Shown: in pieces, positions 269-14,476 of the stretch
How positions within the stretch are numbered: the stretch's first letter is position 1
Layout: each line of letters begins with the position of its first letter
UHGV virus genome: UHGV-1604764
DNA from: a virus
DNA length: 19,186 nucleotides
Direction: 5' to 3' (one strand)
The notes under the pieces: model-generated
What the model was told of the DNA's origin: nothing
The model's database searches: none
The model's input: only the letters and a program-made list of their open reading frames with translations
Made by a program: the position numbers and the translations under genes

Positions 269-619
269 ATGCCGCCACGAATCCCAAAAGCCTGCCGTGT
301 TCGCGGTTGCCGCCATACCACCACAGATCCGTCAGGCTATTGTGAAAGCCACAAAAGCGAAGGCTGGACGCAATATAAGCCAGGTCAGTCCCGTCACCAG
401 CGCGGTTATGGTTCGAAGTGGGACGTTATCCTCGCGCGGGTGCTGAAGCGTGACAAAGGCCTGTGCCAGTTGTGCCTGCGTGCCGGTGTGGTACGTGAGG
501 CGAAAACCGTTGACCACATCATCCCTAAAGCGCATGGCGGCACAGATGCCGACAGCAATCTGCAGAGCCTGTGCTGGCCGTGCCATAAGGCGAAGACGGC
601 CCGTGAACGGCTAAAGTGA
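269..619 (+). CDS. Phage HNH endonuclease (HK97 gp74-like, packaging-associated)
   Basis: ATG at 269 with GGAG upstream. Protein has an N-terminal Cys/His cluster (CRVRGC...YCESH) and an HNH core (DHIIPKAHGG...N...LCWPCH). Sits immediately upstream of the terminase genes, as in HK97-like phages. Confidence 0.85.
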   Translation: MPPRIPKACRVRGCRHTTTDPSGYCESHKSEGWTQYKPGQSRHQRGYGSKWDVILARVLKRDKGLCQLCLRAGVVREAKTVDHIIPKAHGGTDADSNLQSLCWPCHKAKTARERLK

Positions 620-640
620 TAATAATTCTCAACTGTCTGA

Positions 641-705
641 GGGGAGGGGCGGGTCAAATCCCTGTGACCTGACGTCTTTCGGACTGCCCGCCCCATCGTT
701 TTTTT
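641..705 (+). other. GC-rich inverted repeat plus T-run in the HNH/TerS intergenic region: candidate cos region or intrinsic terminator
   Basis: Perfect 8-bp inverted repeat GGGGCGGG (646-653) / CCCGCCCC (687-694) around a 33-nt loop containing the palindrome TGACGTCA, followed by a 7-T run (699-705). Confidence 0.4.
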
Positions 706-744
706 ATACCCGCGAAAAATGAAATTTAACCAGGAGTGCCGCAT

Positions 745-1239
745 ATGGCTGGAACGGCGGGGCGTTCCGGGCGTCGCCCCAAGCCAACGGCGCGCAAGGC
801 GCTGGCCGGAAACCCCGGCAAGCGAGCCCTGAACAAAGATGAACCTGTTTTTACGCCCATCAAAGGTGTTGAGCCACCAGAGTGGTTCGCTGAAGAAGAT
901 CTCCCTCTCGCCACGATCATGTGGCAACTGACAACCAAAGAACTCTGCGGTCAGGGCCTGTTGTGCGTGACTGACCTCGCGGTGCTTGAGCGGTGGTGCG
1001 TGGCCTATGAGTTCTGGCGACGTGCCGTGAAAAATATTGCCATACAGGGCAACACCATCACCGGTGCAATGGGCGGCAGGGTCAAAAATCCGGAGCTGAC
1101 CGCCAAAAAAGAACAGGAGTCCGAGATGAGCAGCACGGGGGCAATGCTCGGACTCGACCCCAGCAGCCGCCAGCGTCTGATTGGCCTGGCGGGGCAGAAG
1201 AAAGCCACTAACCCGTTTCTGAAAATCATCGAGTCATGA
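745..1239 (+). CDS. Terminase small subunit (P27 family-like)
   Basis: Start moved from the ORF-track GTG (736) to ATG 745, which has AGGAG at 732-736. N-terminus [14 protein letters not shown]...GNPGKR is typical of P27-type TerS. Stop overlaps the TerL start (ATGA). Confidence 0.8.
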
Positions 1240-2980: not shown

Positions 2981-3163
2981 ATGATCATGCTGATTCTCGC
3001 GCCTCTGGTGGGCGTGCTGGGTGCGCTTTTGCTGGCGTATGGTGCCTGGCTGATTTATCCCCCGGCGGGGTTTGTTGTTGCCGGGGCGTTGTGCCTGTTC
3101 TGGTCGTGGCTGGTGGCGCGATATCTCGACCGTACACAGTCGTCTGTCGGCGGAGGTAAATAG
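2981..3163 (+). CDS. Small hydrophobic membrane protein (2 predicted TM helices), function unknown
   Basis: 60 aa ([26 protein letters not shown]...[17 protein letters not shown]). GAGG 5 nt upstream of ATG 2981. Stop TAG overlaps the portal GTG start (TAGTG), consistent with translational coupling. Confidence 0.55.
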
Positions 3164-4404
3164 TGTTCTTTTCGGGATTATTTCAACGAAAAAGTGACGC
3201 ACCGGTGACCACGCCAGCAGAGCTGGCGGATGCTATCGGTTTGTCCTACGACACCTATACCGGAAAGCAGATCAGCAGCCAGCGGGCCATGCGACTGACG
3301 GCGGTTTTTTCCTGTGTCAGGGTGCTGGCGGAGTCGGTCGGGATGTTGCCCTGCAATCTGTATCACCTGAACGGCAGCCTGAAGCAGAGAGCCACCGGCG
3401 AACGTCTGCATAAACTGATCTCCACGCATCCCAATGGCTATATGACGCCGCAGGAGTTCTGGGAGCTGGTGGTCACCTGTCTGTGCCTGAGGGGAAACTT
3501 TTACGCCTACAAAGTGAAAGCATTTGGCGAAGTGGCTGAACTGCTGCCCGTCGATCCCGGCTGTGTGGTACCGAAGCTTAACAGTAGCTGGGAACCGGTC
3601 TATCAGGTCACATTCCCGGATGGCTCCACGGATGTACTGAGCCAGGAGGATATCTGGCATGTGCGTACGCTGACGCTGGACGGACTGGTGGGGCTGAATC
3701 CCATCGCCTATGCCCGCGAGGCAATATCGCTGGCGGCAGCGACCGAAGAGCACGGGGCCAGACTGTTCAGCAATGGCGCGGTGACGTCGGGTGTTTTGCG
3801 TACAGAGCAGACGCTGTCGGATCAGGCTTATGAGCGCCTGAAGAAAGATTTTGAGGAGCGTCACACCGGGCTTGGCAATGCTCACCGCCCGATGATCCTT
3901 GAGATGGGGCTGGACTGGAAGTCGATGGCGTTGAACGCAGAGGACAGCCAGTTCCTGGAAACCCGCAAGTTTCAGCTTGAAGAAATTTGTCGTCTGTTCC
4001 GTGTGCCATTGCACATGGTGCAGAACACCGATCGCGCCACCTTCAACAATATCGAAGAGCTGGGGCTCGGATTTATCAACTATTCACTGGTGCCGTATCT
4101 GACCCGCATTGAGCAGCGGATCAACACCGGACTGGTACGAAAAAGTAAGCAGGGTGTTTATTACGCCAAATTTAACGCCGGGGCGTTACTGCGCGGGGAT
4201 ATGAAGTCCCGTTTTGAAGCCTACGCCACCGGGATTAACTGGGGAATTTACTCTCCCAATGACTGCCGCGACCTGGAAGATATGAATCCGCGTCCCGGTG
4301 GTGATGTCTATCTCACACCGATGAACATGACCACGAAACCCTCCGATGGCAGTAAAGCCGGTAAGCAGAAGGATAACGCCAATGCAGACGAAACAACGTC
4401 TTGA
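3163..4404 (+). CDS. Portal protein (HK97 family-like)
   Basis: 413 aa. GTG start with GGAGG 6 nt upstream. Size and position (after TerL, before protease and capsid) and overall sequence character fit HK97-type portals. Confidence 0.88.
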   Translation: MFFSGLFQRKSDAPVTTPAELADAIGLSYDTYTGKQISSQRAMRLTAVFSCVRVLAESVGMLPCNLYHLNGSLKQRATGERLHKLISTHPNGYMTPQEFWELVVTCLCLRGNFYAYKVKAFGEVAELLPVDPGCVVPKLNSSWEPVYQVTFPDGSTDVLSQEDIWHVRTLTLDGLVGLNPIAYAREAISLAAATEEHGARLFSNGAVTSGVLRTEQTLSDQAYERLKKDFEERHTGLGNAHRPMILEMGLDWKSMALNAEDSQFLETRKFQLEEICRLFRVPLHMVQNTDRATFNNIEELGLGFINYSLVPYLTRIEQRINTGLVRKSKQGVYYAKFNAGALLRGDMKSRFEAYATGINWGIYSPNDCRDLEDMNPRPGGDVYLTPMNMTTKPSDGSKAGKQKDNANADETTS

Positions 4405-5032
4405 TGTACCGCTGAGTCTGAAATCTGTCAGTGACTCCGGTGAGTTTGAAGGATATGGCTCCGTCTTTGGTGTAAAGGACAGTCACGATGATGTGGTGAT
4501 GTCCGGGGCATTTGCTGCGTCCCTGCGGGCGTGGAGTGACAGAAAAGCGTTACCTGCGCTGCTCTGGCAGCACCGCATGGATGAGCCCATCGGTGTTTAC
4601 ACCGAAATGAAGGAAGACGATGTCGGGCTTTACGTCAGGGGGCGGTTGCTCATTGATGATGATCCCCTGGCAAAACGCGCACATGCACACATGAAGGCCG
4701 GTTCGTTAACCGGCCTTTCTATTGGGTACGTCCTGAAGGACTGGGAATACGACCGGACGAAAGAAGCCTTTCTGCTGAAAGAAATCGACCTCTGGGAAGT
4801 CAGTCTGGTGACGTTTCCGTCTAACGACGAGGCGCGGATCAGCGACGTCAAGAACGCGCTGGCCCGCGGGGAAATCCCCGAACAGAAAAAAATCGAAAGA
4901 GTCCTGCGTGATGTCGGACTCTCCCGTACCCAGGCCAAAGCATTCATGGCCGGGGGCTATAGCGCACTGTCCCTGCGCGACGCTGAGGATGTGGGCTCTG
5001 CACTGAATGCACTGAAAAATCTGAACTTCTAA
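4382..5032 (+). CDS. Prohead maturation protease (HK97 family, S78/U35-like)
   Basis: Start set to internal ATG 4382 (GAAGGA upstream) rather than ORF-track 4346, which has no RBS. N-terminal GEFEGYGSVFGVKDSHDDVVMSGAF matches the HK97 prohead protease signature. Overlaps the portal 3' end. Confidence 0.85.
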   Translation: MQTKQRLDVPLSLKSVSDSGEFEGYGSVFGVKDSHDDVVMSGAFAASLRAWSDRKALPALLWQHRMDEPIGVYTEMKEDDVGLYVRGRLLIDDDPLAKRAHAHMKAGSLTGLSIGYVLKDWEYDRTKEAFLLKEIDLWEVSLVTFPSNDEARISDVKNALARGEIPEQKKIERVLRDVGLSRTQAKAFMAGGYSALSLRDAEDVGSALNALKNLNF

Positions 5033-5046
5033 TCAGGAGAAATACG

Positions 5047-6252
5047 ATGGCGGTTGATATTAAAGATGTCGAACAGGTCGCGCAGGAGCTGCAGCAGAAG
5101 TTTGACGACTTCAAAGCAAAGAACGACAAGCGCGTGGATGCGATTGAGCAGGAAAAAGGCAAGCTTGCCGGGCAGGTGGAAACCCTGAACGGGAAACTCA
5201 GCGAGCTGGAAAATCTCAAAAGCGACCTTGAAAAAGAGCTGCTTGAGCTGAAACGTCCGGCTGGTGGAGCGCAAAATAAACTGGCCACCGAGCATAAAGA
5301 GGCGTTTGTGGGCTTCCTGCGTAAAGGCCGTGAAGACGGTCTGCGCGATCTGGAGCGTAAGGCATTGCAGGTGGGTACCGATGAAGACGGTGGCTACGCC
5401 GTGCCGGAAGAACTGGATCGCAACATTCTTAACCTGCTGAAAGATGAAGTGGTGATGCGTCAGGAAGCCACGGTGATCACCGTTGGCGGTTCCGACTACA
5501 AAAAACTGGTGAATCTGGGCGGTACGGTTTCCGGATGGGTGGGGGAAACGGATACGCGATCCCAGACTGCCACCTCCAGACTGGAGCTGATTGAACCTCT
5601 CATGGGGGAAATTTACGGCAACCCGCAGGCTACCCAGAAAATGCTGGACGATGCCTTCTTCAACGTGGAGGCCTGGATCAACAGCGAGCTGGCAACCGAA
5701 TTTGCCGAACAGGAAGAAATTGCCTTTACCTCAGGCGATGGCACCAAGAAGCCGAAAGGGTTCCTGGCGTATGAATCCACTGATGAAACCGACAAGGTCC
5801 GGGCGTTCGGCAAACTTCAGCATATTGTATCCGGCGAAGCGACCGCGGTGACCGCAGACGCCATTATCAAACTGATTTACACGCTGCGTAAGGCACACCG
5901 CACTGGCGCGAAGTTCATGATGAACAACAACAGCCTGTTTGCCATCCGTCTGCTGAAAGACAGCGAGGGTAATTATCTGTGGCGTCCGGGGCTGGAGCTG
6001 GGGCAGCCGTCCTCTCTGGCGGGTTACGGTATCGCTGAAAACGAACAGATGCCGGATATCGCCGCTGATGCGAAAGCCATTGCATTTGGTAACTTCAAAC
6101 GGGGTTACACCATCGTTGACCGTATCGGCACCCGCATTCTGCGTGACCCGTACACCAATAAACCGTTTGTCGGTTTTTATACCACCAAACGCACCGGCGG
6201 CATGCTGGTCGATTCGCAGGCCATCAAACTGCTGAAGATTGCAGTGGCGTAA
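5047..6252 (+). CDS. Major capsid protein (HK97 fold) with N-terminal coiled-coil delta (scaffolding) domain
   Basis: 401 aa. AGGAG upstream of ATG 5047. N-terminal ~100 aa is heptad-rich/charged (QELQQKFDDFKAKNDKRVDAIEQEKGKLAGQVETLNGKLSELENLKSDLEKELLELKR). No separate scaffold gene is present. Confidence 0.9.
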   Translation: MAVDIKDVEQVAQELQQKFDDFKAKNDKRVDAIEQEKGKLAGQVETLNGKLSELENLKSDLEKELLELKRPAGGAQNKLATEHKEAFVGFLRKGREDGLRDLERKALQVGTDEDGGYAVPEELDRNILNLLKDEVVMRQEATVITVGGSDYKKLVNLGGTVSGWVGETDTRSQTATSRLELIEPLMGEIYGNPQATQKMLDDAFFNVEAWINSELATEFAEQEEIAFTSGDGTKKPKGFLAYESTDETDKVRAFGKLQHIVSGEATAVTADAIIKLIYTLRKAHRTGAKFMMNNNSLFAIRLLKDSEGNYLWRPGLELGQPSSLAGYGIAENEQMPDIAADAKAIAFGNFKRGYTIVDRIGTRILRDPYTNKPFVGFYTTKRTGGMLVDSQAIKLLKIAVA

Positions 6253-6259
6253 TCACTCA

Positions 6260-6279
6260 GGGGCGCGGAACCGCGCCCC
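6260..6279 (+). other. GC hairpin immediately 3' of the capsid gene (possible attenuator or mRNA-stabilising stem-loop)
   Basis: GGGGCGC GGAACC GCGCCCC, a 7-bp G/C stem, 8 nt after the capsid stop. No strong downstream U-tract, so not a classic intrinsic terminator. Confidence 0.45.
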
Positions 6280-6301
6280 CTGTTCTGACGGGTGAAGAAT
6301 C

Positions 6302-6502
6302 ATGATCCTGAAACAAGATCTGAAATGGTCACCGGACGGTATGCGTGTTGAGGTCATTCGGGCCGGTGAGTATGACGACGGGGCGCTTCCTGCCCGGGTG
6401 CAGGAGATTGCACTTCAGGCCGGGTTAGCAGAGCGCGGAACCAGTGCAAAAAGCAGTAAAGCGACAAAAGAGAAAAAAGCCACGACCAGTAAAGAGGGCT
6501 GA
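6302..6502 (+). CDS. Hypothetical small protein (66 aa, Lys/Ser/Thr-rich C-terminus)
   Basis: ORF fills the capsid-to-connector gap and its stop lies 2 nt before the next start. Weak RBS. No family recognised. Confidence 0.45.
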   Translation: MILKQDLKWSPDGMRVEVIRAGEYDDGALPARVQEIALQAGLAERGTSAKSSKATKEKKATTSKEG

Positions 6503-6504
6503 GT

Positions 6505-6828
6505 ATGCTTCTGACAATGGAAGAGATTAAAGCCCAACTCCGGCTGGATGAGGATTTCGATGCTGATGACCGCCATCTGCAACTGCTGGCCTGTGCGGCG
6601 CAAAAGCGGACGGAAACGTATCTGAACCGGAAGCTCTATGCACCGGATGAAACCATTCCGGACAGCGATCCGGACGGGCTGCACCTGCCGGATGATATTC
6701 GTCTGGGGATGCTGATGCTTATCAGCCATTTTTACGAAAATCGCTCGTCGGTTACAGACGTTGAGAAAATGGAGTTGCCAATGAGCTTTAACTGGCTTGT
6801 CGGCCCGTACAGGTATTTCCCGCAATGA
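6505..6828 (+). CDS. Head-tail connector protein (gp6-like)
   Basis: 107 aa. N-terminal MLLTMEEIKAQLRLDEDFDADD is the characteristic start of gp6-like connector proteins. AGAGGG RBS. Confidence 0.75.
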   Translation: MLLTMEEIKAQLRLDEDFDADDRHLQLLACAAQKRTETYLNRKLYAPDETIPDSDPDGLHLPDDIRLGMLMLISHFYENRSSVTDVEKMELPMSFNWLVGPYRYFPQ

Positions 6829-7235
6829 AAATTCGTCAGGCGCAGACCAGCGCAACCTACATTCTGCCGGACCCCGGTGAACTGAATAAACGCGTCCTGA
6901 TCCGCCAGCGGGTGGATATGCCCGCGGATAACTTTGGCGTGGAGCCTCAATACCCGGTTGCGTTCCGGACATGGGCGAAGGTTGTCCAGACCAGTGCCAC
7001 CACCTGGCAGGAAACCGCGCAGACCGGGGACGCCATCACCCATTACATCACCATTCGTTACCGCCGGGGGATCACCGCTGATTATGAGGTGGTCTGCGGT
7101 GACAGTGTGTACCGGGTGAAACGTCAGCGCGATCTGAACGGGGCGCGGCGCTTTCTGCTGCTGGAGTGTACGGAGCTGGGCGAATGTAGGCAGAGTCACG
7201 GAGGCAACAATGACGACTTCCTTTTTGCACGTTGA
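6825..7235 (+). CDS. Head-tail joining / head closure protein
   Basis: 136 aa. Overlapping start (ATGA). Pattern LNKRVLIRQR...AKV...ITIRYRRGI...YRV resembles phage head-tail joining proteins. Confidence 0.65.
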   Translation: MKIRQAQTSATYILPDPGELNKRVLIRQRVDMPADNFGVEPQYPVAFRTWAKVVQTSATTWQETAQTGDAITHYITIRYRRGITADYEVVCGDSVYRVKRQRDLNGARRFLLLECTELGECRQSHGGNNDDFLFAR

Positions 7236-13084: not shown

Positions 13085-13110
13085 ACCTTACATTAATTTA
13101 TGTCTTTCAT

Positions 13111-13132
13111 GCCCACTTCGGTGGGCTTTTTT
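13111..13132 (+). terminator. Rho-independent terminator downstream of the moron gene
   Basis: GCCCAC-TTCG-GTGGGC (6-bp G/C stem, TTCG tetraloop) followed directly by TTTTTT, 27 nt after the moron stop and 16 nt before the next start codon. Confidence 0.7.
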
Positions 13133-13147
13133 ATATCCGGAGTTTAT

Positions 13148-14476
13148 ATGACGTGGAAAGACAGGCTTCAGGACGCGTCATTTCGCGGTGTGCCGTTTAA
13201 GGTTGAAGAAGAAAGTGCGGGAACAGGTCGCCGTGTGGAAACACACGAATATCCGAACCGCGACAAACCCTATACCGAAGATCTGGGAAAAGTCACTTTC
13301 CGCCCGTCCATCACGGCTTATGTGGTGGGCGATGACTGCTTTGACCAGCGCGATCGCCTGATTGACGCGCTGAATAAACCCGGTCCCGGCACGCTTGTCC
13401 ACCCGACTTACGGTGAGCTGAAAGTCTGTGTTGACGGAGAGGTTCGGGTCAGCACATCGAAAAGTGAAGGGCGTATTGTCCGCTTTGACCTGAAGTTTGT
13501 CGAAGCGGGAGAACTCTCTTACCCCACATCAGGTGCGGCGACGGCGCAGACGCTGATGTCATCCTGTTCTGCACTGGATGACTGCATCAGTGACAGCTTC
13601 AGCGGTTTCAGTATCGATGGTGTGGCGGATTTCGTGCAGAACGACGTTATCGGTAATGCCAGCATAATGCTGGGGTATGTTTCTGATGCGATGAAAGTGG
13701 TGGATTCTGCCGTATCGGATGCCGCCAGGCTGTTGCAGGGGGATATCTCGGTACTTCTGCCGCCGCCATCGTCAGGCAAAAATTTCGTTGAGCAGGTGCA
13801 GAAAATGTGGCGTACCGGGAAACGCCTTTATGGTAACGCCAGCGACCTGGTCACCATGATCAAAACGCTTTCCGGTGTCAGCCTCGGCAGCGATCTGCAA
13901 CCGCGCGGCGTCTGGAAAACGGACAGTAAAACCACCGCCACGGCGACGCAGCAGCGTAACGTGGTTGCCAGCACCCTTCGTGCGACCGCAATCAGCGAAG
14001 CGGCGTATGCCGTCACCCGATTGCCTGCGCCAACAACTTCCGCGGTGATGCAGAATGCCGCAGTGGGGCAGTCAACAACTTCCGCGCAGAGCACCGGCTG
14101 GCCTTCCGTCACGCATCCGGCACTGAACAATGCACCGGCGGTGAAAAACACGGTTGACCTGCCAACGTGGGAAGAACTGACTGACATTCGCGACACACTG
14201 AATACGGCAATTGATAAGGAGTTGTCCCGTACAACCAGTGATGCGCTGTTTCTGGCGCTGCGCCGGGTGAAAGCAGATCTGAATGCGGATATCAACACGC
14301 GCCTTGAACAGTCTGCTCGGATCATTCAGCGCACGCCGGATGAGGTCTTACCCGCGCTGGTGCTGGCGGCGACCTGGTTTGATAACGCGGCGCGTGACGC
14401 GGACATTATCCGGCGTAATGCCATTACGCATCCCGGCTTTGTGCCGGTGATCCCTCTGAAGGTGCCAGTGCAATGA
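13148..14476 (+). CDS. DNA circulation protein (Mu gp43-like)
   Basis: Start set to ATG 13148 (GGAG 5 nt upstream). ORF-track 13100 would read through the terminator hairpin. N-terminus MTWKDRLQDASFRGVPFKV...GRRVETHEYPNRDKPYTEDLG...GPGTLVHPTYG matches the DNA-circulation N-terminal domain. Confidence 0.8.
   Translation: MTWKDRLQDASFRGVPFKVEEESAGTGRRVETHEYPNRDKPYTEDLGKVTFRPSITAYVVGDDCFDQRDRLIDALNKPGPGTLVHPTYGELKVCVDGEVRVSTSKSEGRIVRFDLKFVEAGELSYPTSGAATAQTLMSSCSALDDCISDSFSGFSIDGVADFVQNDVIGNASIMLGYVSDAMKVVDSAVSDAARLLQGDISVLLPPPSSGKNFVEQVQKMWRTGKRLYGNASDLVTMIKTLSGVSLGSDLQPRGVWKTDSKTTATATQQRNVVASTLRATAISEAAYAVTRLPAPTTSAVMQNAAVGQSTTSAQSTGWPSVTHPALNNAPAVKNTVDLPTWEELTDIRDTLNTAIDKELSRTTSDALFLALRRVKADLNADINTRLEQSARIIQRTPDEVLPALVLAATWFDNAARDADIIRRNAITHPGFVPVIPLKVPVQ

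Follow-up and report, generated by a model that had tools for sequence, protein, structure and literature searches.

A very probable cos site of the SfV/SfI/phiP27 type between the HNH endonuclease and small terminase genes of a temperate phage genome

The cohesive-end site of phage SfI has been located by run-off sequencing of virion DNA with primers in the HNH and small terminase subunit (TerS) genes, which left a 10-nt gap, 5'-TGCCCGCCCC-3', relative to the prophage that was taken as cos (PMC3636060). The same paper describes the SfV cos region as highly similar, and a common cos has been reported for SfI, SfII, SfIV and SfV (PMC3851460). HK97 ends are 10-nt 3' overhangs (PMC9410871), and the HK97 TerS nonamer binds +15 to +29 past the cut, reading one G and the adjacent A-tract (PMC11331095). 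Xu and Gupta found that HNH enzymes encoded next to cos, including that of phage Gamma, are nickases cutting CG|GT (AC^CG; PMC3592412), while HK97 gp74 (PMC3592412) and lactococcal HrdP (PMC12967558) appear non-specific in vitro. An earlier proposal assigns one nick to the HNH protein and the other to the large terminase subunit, TerL (summarised in PMC12967558), an assignment left open in PMC11331095. In phage lambda, termination requires cosQ, which is located upstream of cosN (PMC4669245).

Here we compare these systems with an intergenic region in the virus genome UHGV-1604764; the whole analysed stretch of 19,186 nucleotides is referred to as the window. The relevant features are as follows.

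269–619, + strand: HNH endonuclease gene (Pfam HNH, E = 2.3e-16), a packaging accessory nuclease
620–744: intergenic region between the HNH and TerS genes
641–660, + strand: G-box, GGGGAGGGGCGGG followed by TCAAATC; conserved cos element on the upstream side, within which the left repeat arm (646–653) lies
661–680, + strand: variable spacer with low conservation by column counts, its length kept and its sequence not
681–684, + strand: GGAC, conserved left flank of the cohesive end, with the predicted bottom-strand nick at 684|685
685–694, + strand: cohesive end TGCCCGCCCC (cosN core), identical to the mapped SfI end; putative 10-nt 3' overhang
699–705, + strand: T-tract at +5 to +11 from the predicted top-strand nick, making up the left portion of the conserved downstream block
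706–729, + strand: ATACCCGCGAAAAATGAAATTTAA, the most conserved block; proposed TerS recognition site and cosB analogue
733–737, + strand: AGGAG, read from the sequence as the ribosome-binding site for TerS, 7 nt before ATG 745
745–1239, + strand: TerS gene, P27 family (Pfam Terminase_4)
1236–2969, + strand: TerL gene, ATPase and nuclease (Pfam TerL_ATPase, TerL_nuclease)

The HNH protein has an N-terminal zinc-ribbon-like CxxxxC...CxxH motif followed by a C-terminal HNH domain, and is related to HK97 gp74 (BLASTP, 35% identity, E = 2e-9), to the HNH nickase of Bacillus phage Gamma (40% identity, E = 2e-15) and to the HNH endonuclease of PDB entry 5H0M (E = 1.1e-10). The Pfam-annotated neighbours give the order HNH, cos, P27-family TerS and TerL. 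The program-made list of open reading frames starts TerS at GTG 736; AGGAG at 733–737 together with the SfV and SfI annotations favour ATG 745, and orf1 in the SfV record is annotated from the homologous ATG. Portal, S78 protease and HK97-fold capsid genes lie downstream of TerL, with a Mu-type contractile tail module further along the window, a gene mosaic of the type known from Shigella phage SfV. The HNH, TerS, TerL, portal, protease and capsid reading frames are all intact.

Two further sites were observed elsewhere in the window. A perfect 8-bp all-G/C hairpin, GGGGCGCG-GAAC-CGCGCCCC, occupies 6260–6279, 8 nt past the major capsid stop codon (6252), with no T-run after it, and may be an mRNA stabiliser or attenuator following the capsid gene. 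At 13111–13134 a canonical terminator-like site, GCCCAC-TTCG-GTGGGC followed by TTTTTTAT, falls just inside the 5' end of the reading frame 13100–14476 (DNA_circ_N, Mu gpN-like); the true start of this frame may therefore be further downstream.

The SfI end TGCCCGCCCC occurs once in the window on either strand, at 685–694, where it consists of TG and the right arm of an inverted repeat. The SfI record ends in ...GGACTGCCCGCCCC and restarts with GTCGTTTTTTTATACC, a junction that equals 694|695 in the window, and the annotated cos-site of phiP27, CGCCCGCCCC, lies at the homologous place with one base different from TGCCCGCCCC. The homologous position is also where six linear records stop (SfI, Burkholderia phi644-2, Edwardsiella EPP-1, HK97, Bacillus Gamma and Clostridium phi3626); for phi3626 a 3' cohesive end of 9 nt is annotated. 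Megablast against phage genomes returned SfV-like phages at 92–98% identity, several of them as linear records that start or end inside the intergenic region; the flanks of 685–694 are about 97% identical to SfV-like phages. Because the records of SfV, SfII and ST64B start 17, 75 and -35 nt from the mapped nick, record starts alone are no proof, and we placed weight on SfI (mapped), on phiP27 and phi3626 (annotated) and on the agreement among the six records. The Geobacillus E2 record is permuted, starting inside the HNH gene, and is uninformative on termini. A literature search for the cos 10-mers returned only unrelated papers.

Taken as a whole, this comparison makes it very probable that 620–744 serves as cos in a temperate phage of the SfV/SfI/phiP27 type with HK97-type head and packaging genes and a Mu-type tail. 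The initial annotation, which had suggested a cos region of HK97/SfV-like type between the HNH and terminase genes and a comparison with the cos sites of those phages, is thus borne out by the mapped SfI end at 685–694, which is identical, and by the HK97 record, which ends at the homologous point. The site is already known, being the same element as in SfI, SfV and phiP27, and is real but ordinary.

The run-off reads of SfI left a gap rather than an overlap, and therefore point to recessed 5' ends, that is, to 3' overhangs. By analogy with SfI, HK97 and phi3626, we infer the same 3' polarity for the 10-nt end in the window, with nicks predicted at 694|695 on the top strand and at 684|685 on the bottom strand.

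To survey conservation, one genome per species was scanned with a TerS alignment, yielding 80 loci (TerS identity 48–99%) from Enterobacterales, Pseudomonas, Comamonas, Burkholderia, Pandoraea and Herbaspirillum. Anchoring on CCGCG[AT]AA gave a gapless alignment of 75 distinct rows of 117 nt, in which the anchoring itself makes the anchor columns invariant. At fixed spacing, the 75 relatives all share the G-box, AC|YGCC and the T-tract/CCGCGAAA block, with the following counts at individual positions.

G647–649: G in 73–75 of 75 relatives
A683: A in 74 of 75
C684: C in 70 of 75
G686: G in 69 of 75
T701–704: T in 72–75 of 75 (96–100%)
A722–723: A in 75 of 75

The right half of the overhang varies among these relatives. 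Its left half is better conserved, with G686 in 69 and C687 in 64 of 75 rows against 33–41 at 692–694, as in lambda cosN. The two predicted nicks are pseudo-symmetric, GAC|N10|(G/A)TC, both in the window (681–698) and in relatives. In phiP27 the spacer has the same length and a different sequence. Conservation among relatives with the same terminase, which the initial annotation had put forward as a check, thus holds across prophages of Enterobacterales, Pseudomonas, Comamonas and Burkholderia, and it is this conservation together with the match to a mapped cos, rather than the repeat itself, that gives the region its significance.

The 161-bp HNH-cos-TerS junction (window 600–760) was found in 1157 of 5426 complete E. 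coli genomes, about a fifth, with up to four copies per genome and 15 places on plasmids; the E. coli records with the junction hold no annotation of the intergenic region. One viral contig (L217, IMGVR_UViG_2711768073_000020) carries, within 3100–7000, two units of HNH end, G-box, cos and TerS 2.9 kb apart, with G-boxes at 3487 and 6358; between them lie minus-strand reading frames of 278 and 102 aa in a layout typical of an IS3-family element. The doubling may be an artefact of assembly or a duplication that arose around an insertion.

HK97, Bacillus Gamma and Clostridium phi3626 have counterparts of the G-box some 40 nt short of their genome ends; counted from the T of TCRAA, the cohesive end has its left edge at 31 nt in the window, HK97 and Gamma and at 29–30 nt in phi3626. 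Viral contigs were also searched for the G-box alone with the pattern GGGGAGGGGNNGGTCRAA. In these contigs, AC|CG or AC|TG stands exactly 31 nt after the T of TCRAA at 64 of 87 distinct G-box loci, an HNH homologue ends within 600 nt upstream in 111 of 117 occurrences, and a TerL homologue lies downstream in 75 of 80, with varying TerS types. The box of a G-run and TC(A/G)AA is shared by Gamma (L171/L172), phi3626 (L176) and HK97 (L007), whose TerS proteins are not alignable pairwise, and thus spans Gram-positive and Gram-negative hosts. As a more speculative inference by analogy with lambda, the G-box may act as a cosQ-like positioning or termination element for HNH or TerL. A G-quadruplex at the G-box was considered and set aside, the window having just three G-runs.

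The near-invariant AC|YG, which would be the step of the bottom-strand nick, lies 30–31 nt downstream of the G-box. Read on the bottom strand, the predicted nick falls in CA|GT in the window and in CG|GT in phiP27 and HK97, and the cohesive end of Gamma begins exactly at GTAC|CG, its HNH nicking site. AC|YG thus matches the CG|GT specificity of the HNH nickases, which suggests that HNH nicks the bottom strand at AC^TG (CA|GT) and that TerL nicks the top strand; this pattern fits the earlier proposal of one nick for each protein. Two findings weigh against a sequence-specific HNH nick: the left boundary in phi3626 is GGT|CG rather than AC|CG, and gp74 and HrdP appear non-specific in vitro.

Extending these observations, we tentatively consider a single cos grammar for HNH-assisted phages from Enterobacteria to Bacillus and Clostridium, a possibility that we hold to be somewhat short of even: a G-run/TCRAA box would stand 30–31 nt from AC^YG, an HNH protein positioned by the G-box would cut the bottom strand, TerL would cut the top strand 9–10 nt downstream, and only the downstream block would be TerS-specific. 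If true, this grammar would answer, for HK97-type cos sites, the question of which strand each nuclease cuts, a point left open in structural work on HK97 (PMC11331095). Some novelty value lies only in the rule G-box-N-AC|YG, as seen across phyla, and in its agreement with HNH nicking specificity.

To the right of the cohesive end, seven Ts had been reported after the repeat, and T7 is indeed found at 699–705, 4 nt past the right arm, the only run of at least seven Ts in the window. One CCGCG[AT]AA lies upstream of TerS at each locus whose upstream sequence is long enough, and the A/T columns that flank it are near-invariant in the 75 rows. In every relative, even where no stem is possible, the T-tract stands at one offset from ACCCGCGAAA(A/T)AT, although its spacing to CCGCGAAA is fixed by construction, CCGCGAAA being the alignment anchor within the putative TerS box.

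In three phages, phi467, KPNMC05 and 733R5, the G-box, the GTACCGCCGCC core and the 3' end of HNH are retained, TerS is a different one and the block from +1 on is another, CGCCGCAGGTT[CA]GAAAACTTTTTTTT. Among viral contigs the downstream block likewise switches with TerS type, and it therefore travels with TerS. By sequence comparison, then, a near-invariant block at +7 to +35 from the cut co-varies with TerS type, which makes TTTTT-ATACCCGCGAAAAATGAAATT a candidate TerS site, probably the binding site of the small terminase rather than the tail of a terminator. The HK97 TerS site, CTAACCCGATTTTTT (ACCCG and an A/T tract), resembles ATACCCGCGAAAAAT in the window. A T-loop-like GGGTCAAATCCC was considered as a tRNA remnant and rejected, since the tRNA scan found no tRNA.

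The initial annotation had rested on a perfect 8-bp G/C inverted repeat around a 33-nt loop. The repeat is present, its arms GGGGCGGG (646–653) and CCCGCCCC (687–694) being 100% complementary across a 33-nt spacer, but it is neither a conserved nor a covarying structure. A TGACGTCA palindrome described in the loop is absent: positions 670–677 read TGACGTCT, palindromic only at GACGTC (671–676), a stretch that is variable in relatives.

The window holds 19 perfect 8-bp inverted repeats with spacers of 3–40 nt, against 11.6 +/- 4.4 in dinucleotide shuffles, and two with all-G/C arms against 0.275 expected, at least one such repeat occurring in 21% of shuffles; the repeat alone is not beyond chance expectation. 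The fold energy of 620–744 is ordinary (z = -0.68 against shuffles), and that of 640–710 is modest (z = -1.81).

Across the 75 rows, in-register pairing of the eight pairs is 54%, against 38–57% in slid controls, all eight pairs are kept in only five rows, and the sole informative pair, 650/690, is mismatched (G-G or C-C) in 44. The longest complementary match averages 5.05 nt between arms of the same locus and 5.08 nt between arms of different loci (permutation p = 0.67), and near-identical viral contigs mix arms, with left GGGGGAGG and right TGCCCGCCCC or left GGGGCGGG and right TGCCCGCCTC. As judged from these alignments, the inverted repeat is not a maintained structure, and a maintained hairpin or cruciform was rejected, with no signal either in the comparison of own and other-locus arms or in the pair counts of slid controls. 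The right arm is part of the cohesive end and the left arm lies inside the separately conserved G-run/TCAAATC box; the repeat thus results from the presence of a G-rich G-box and a C-rich cohesive end on one strand and not from selection for a hairpin.

These data also bear on a terminator between lysis and packaging genes, which had been offered as an alternative to cos and finds little support here. In this reading, the stem 646–653/687–694 and the following U7 run would form a Rho-independent terminator or attenuator between lysis and head-gene transcription, possibly besides cos. The site does lie at the lysis/packaging boundary, and the 640–710 transcript folds to -27.1 kcal/mol with eight G-C pairs closed (z = -1.81), a value equalled in only 8 of 200 shuffles. 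As a whole, however, the 125-nt region does not outdo shuffles in fold energy; the loop has 33 nt, with four non-U bases between stem and U-run, and a consensus terminator scan makes no call. The stem is absent from most relatives by the pair counts given above, close relatives mix arm variants, and arm complementarity shows no same-locus excess, whereas the T-tract is 96–100% conserved nonetheless and locked to the CCGCGAAA block. Conservation of the T-tract where no stem is possible argues against its being a terminator tail. In lambdoid phages, moreover, Q antitermination has to carry late transcription across cos.

Transcripts in the clade of the window could thus adopt a stable fold, but the fold lacks conservation; the readings as hairpin and as terminator are both weak, and we regard a terminator or attenuator here as unlikely. 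The scans for promoters and terminators called nothing in 620–744, Rfam at E up to 10 over 1–2000 gave no relevant match, only two chance hits elsewhere, and the tRNA scan was negative.

Slightly less likely still, we think, is a function of the repeat as DNA, either as an extruded hairpin or cruciform or as two copies of one protein bound to GGGGCGGG on opposite strands, in which case sites about four helical turns apart would set up cutting. In both the window and phiP27 the last base of the right arm does abut the top-strand nick, Bacillus Gamma independently carries GGGGCGG...CCGCCCC ending at its terminus, Gilliamella prophages carry TAGGGGGG/CCCCCCTA, and the arm-to-arm spacing is about 41 bp with spacer length conserved. 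Against this stand the lack of covariation between the arms, the frequent mismatch at 650/690, the mixing of arm variants in near-identical phages, the lack of the repeat in HK97 and the weak single-strand DNA fold (-13.1 kcal/mol, z = -1.63).

Although the element is known here from prophage sequence alone, and many of the E. coli genomes that carry the region surely hold defective prophages, it is very improbable that the region is an intergenic remnant in a dead prophage without current packaging function, given the intact packaging and head genes and an intact cos core with both conserved boxes that match functional SfI, SfV, SfII and SfIV. This copy is a prophage and may be defective.

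Returning to the cos reading, we propose that terminase and its HNH partner would cut concatemeric DNA within 620–744 by two staggered nicks, the top cut at 694|695 and the bottom cut at 684|685 leaving the 10-nt 3' cohesive end TGCCCGCCCC. The site would have three parts: the upstream G-box (641–660), which would come to lie at the right end once the genome is packaged; a nicking core, GGAC|TGCCCGCCCC|ATCG (681–698); and the T-tract with ATACCCGCGAAAAATGAAATTTAA (699–729), which would be the first DNA packaged. The P27-family TerS probably binds 699–729, by analogy with the HK97 TerS at +15 to +29.

For the window alone this has little import, as it adds another copy of a cos mapped in SfI and phiP27; with exact nick positions it would be easier to orient such prophages, to set their limits and to predict mobilisable plasmids or satellite elements. 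Of wider use are a cos map in three parts that covers the whole P27/HK97 HNH-terminase group, and an allocation of the two nicks to HNH and TerL that is concrete and can be tested.

Among known systems, one likeness is superficial: window 641–729 looks like herpesvirus packaging signals, in which pac1 is a T-rich element flanked by G-runs, pac2 is CGCGGCG beside a T-rich element, and the cut is made at a fixed distance (PMC13595911); this is a resemblance only. The lambda cos (cosQ-cosN-cosB) follows the same logic as the window, in that an element for termination lies upstream of the nicking site and packaging specificity is set by the region downstream to which TerS binds (PMC4669245), and the left half of lambda cosN is better conserved, as in the window. 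Lambda differs in its 12-nt 5' overhangs, in having no HNH protein, in its use of IHF and three R sites and in showing no sequence similarity; with terminase families different from Nu1/A and a 10-nt end of opposite predicted polarity, the window falls outside the lambda type, and the likeness is one of analogy, not membership.

The cos sites of Gamma and phi3626 have a G-run box about 30 nt before the left boundary of a 3' end, which is 9 nt long rather than 10 nt as in the window, and their downstream sequences are different. In HK97 (gp74 HNH, gp1 TerS, gp2 TerL), gp1 is not detectably related to the window TerS by sequence, cos has no 8-bp inverted repeat, the downstream block is of other sequence and offset, and gp74, unlike the window HNH protein, is without the N-terminal zinc ribbon (PMC3592412).

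Closer to the window is phiP27 (an Stx2e phage, AJ298298, and type member of the P27 TerS family), with cos CGCCCGCCCC at the homologous position, which shares the G-box, the 8-bp arms, the 33-nt spacer and the ACCCGCGAAA block, and differs in the first overhang base (C, against T in the window), in spacer sequence and in a TerS that is 50% identical. Closest of all are SfI, SfV, SfII and SfIV, with the same 10-nt end TGCCCGCCCC and the same order of HNH, cos, TerS and TerL; their flanks are 97–100% identical to the window over 680–800 and about 89–97% upstream, and the only differences are point differences, in the spacer and at +1, where the window has A and SfI has G.
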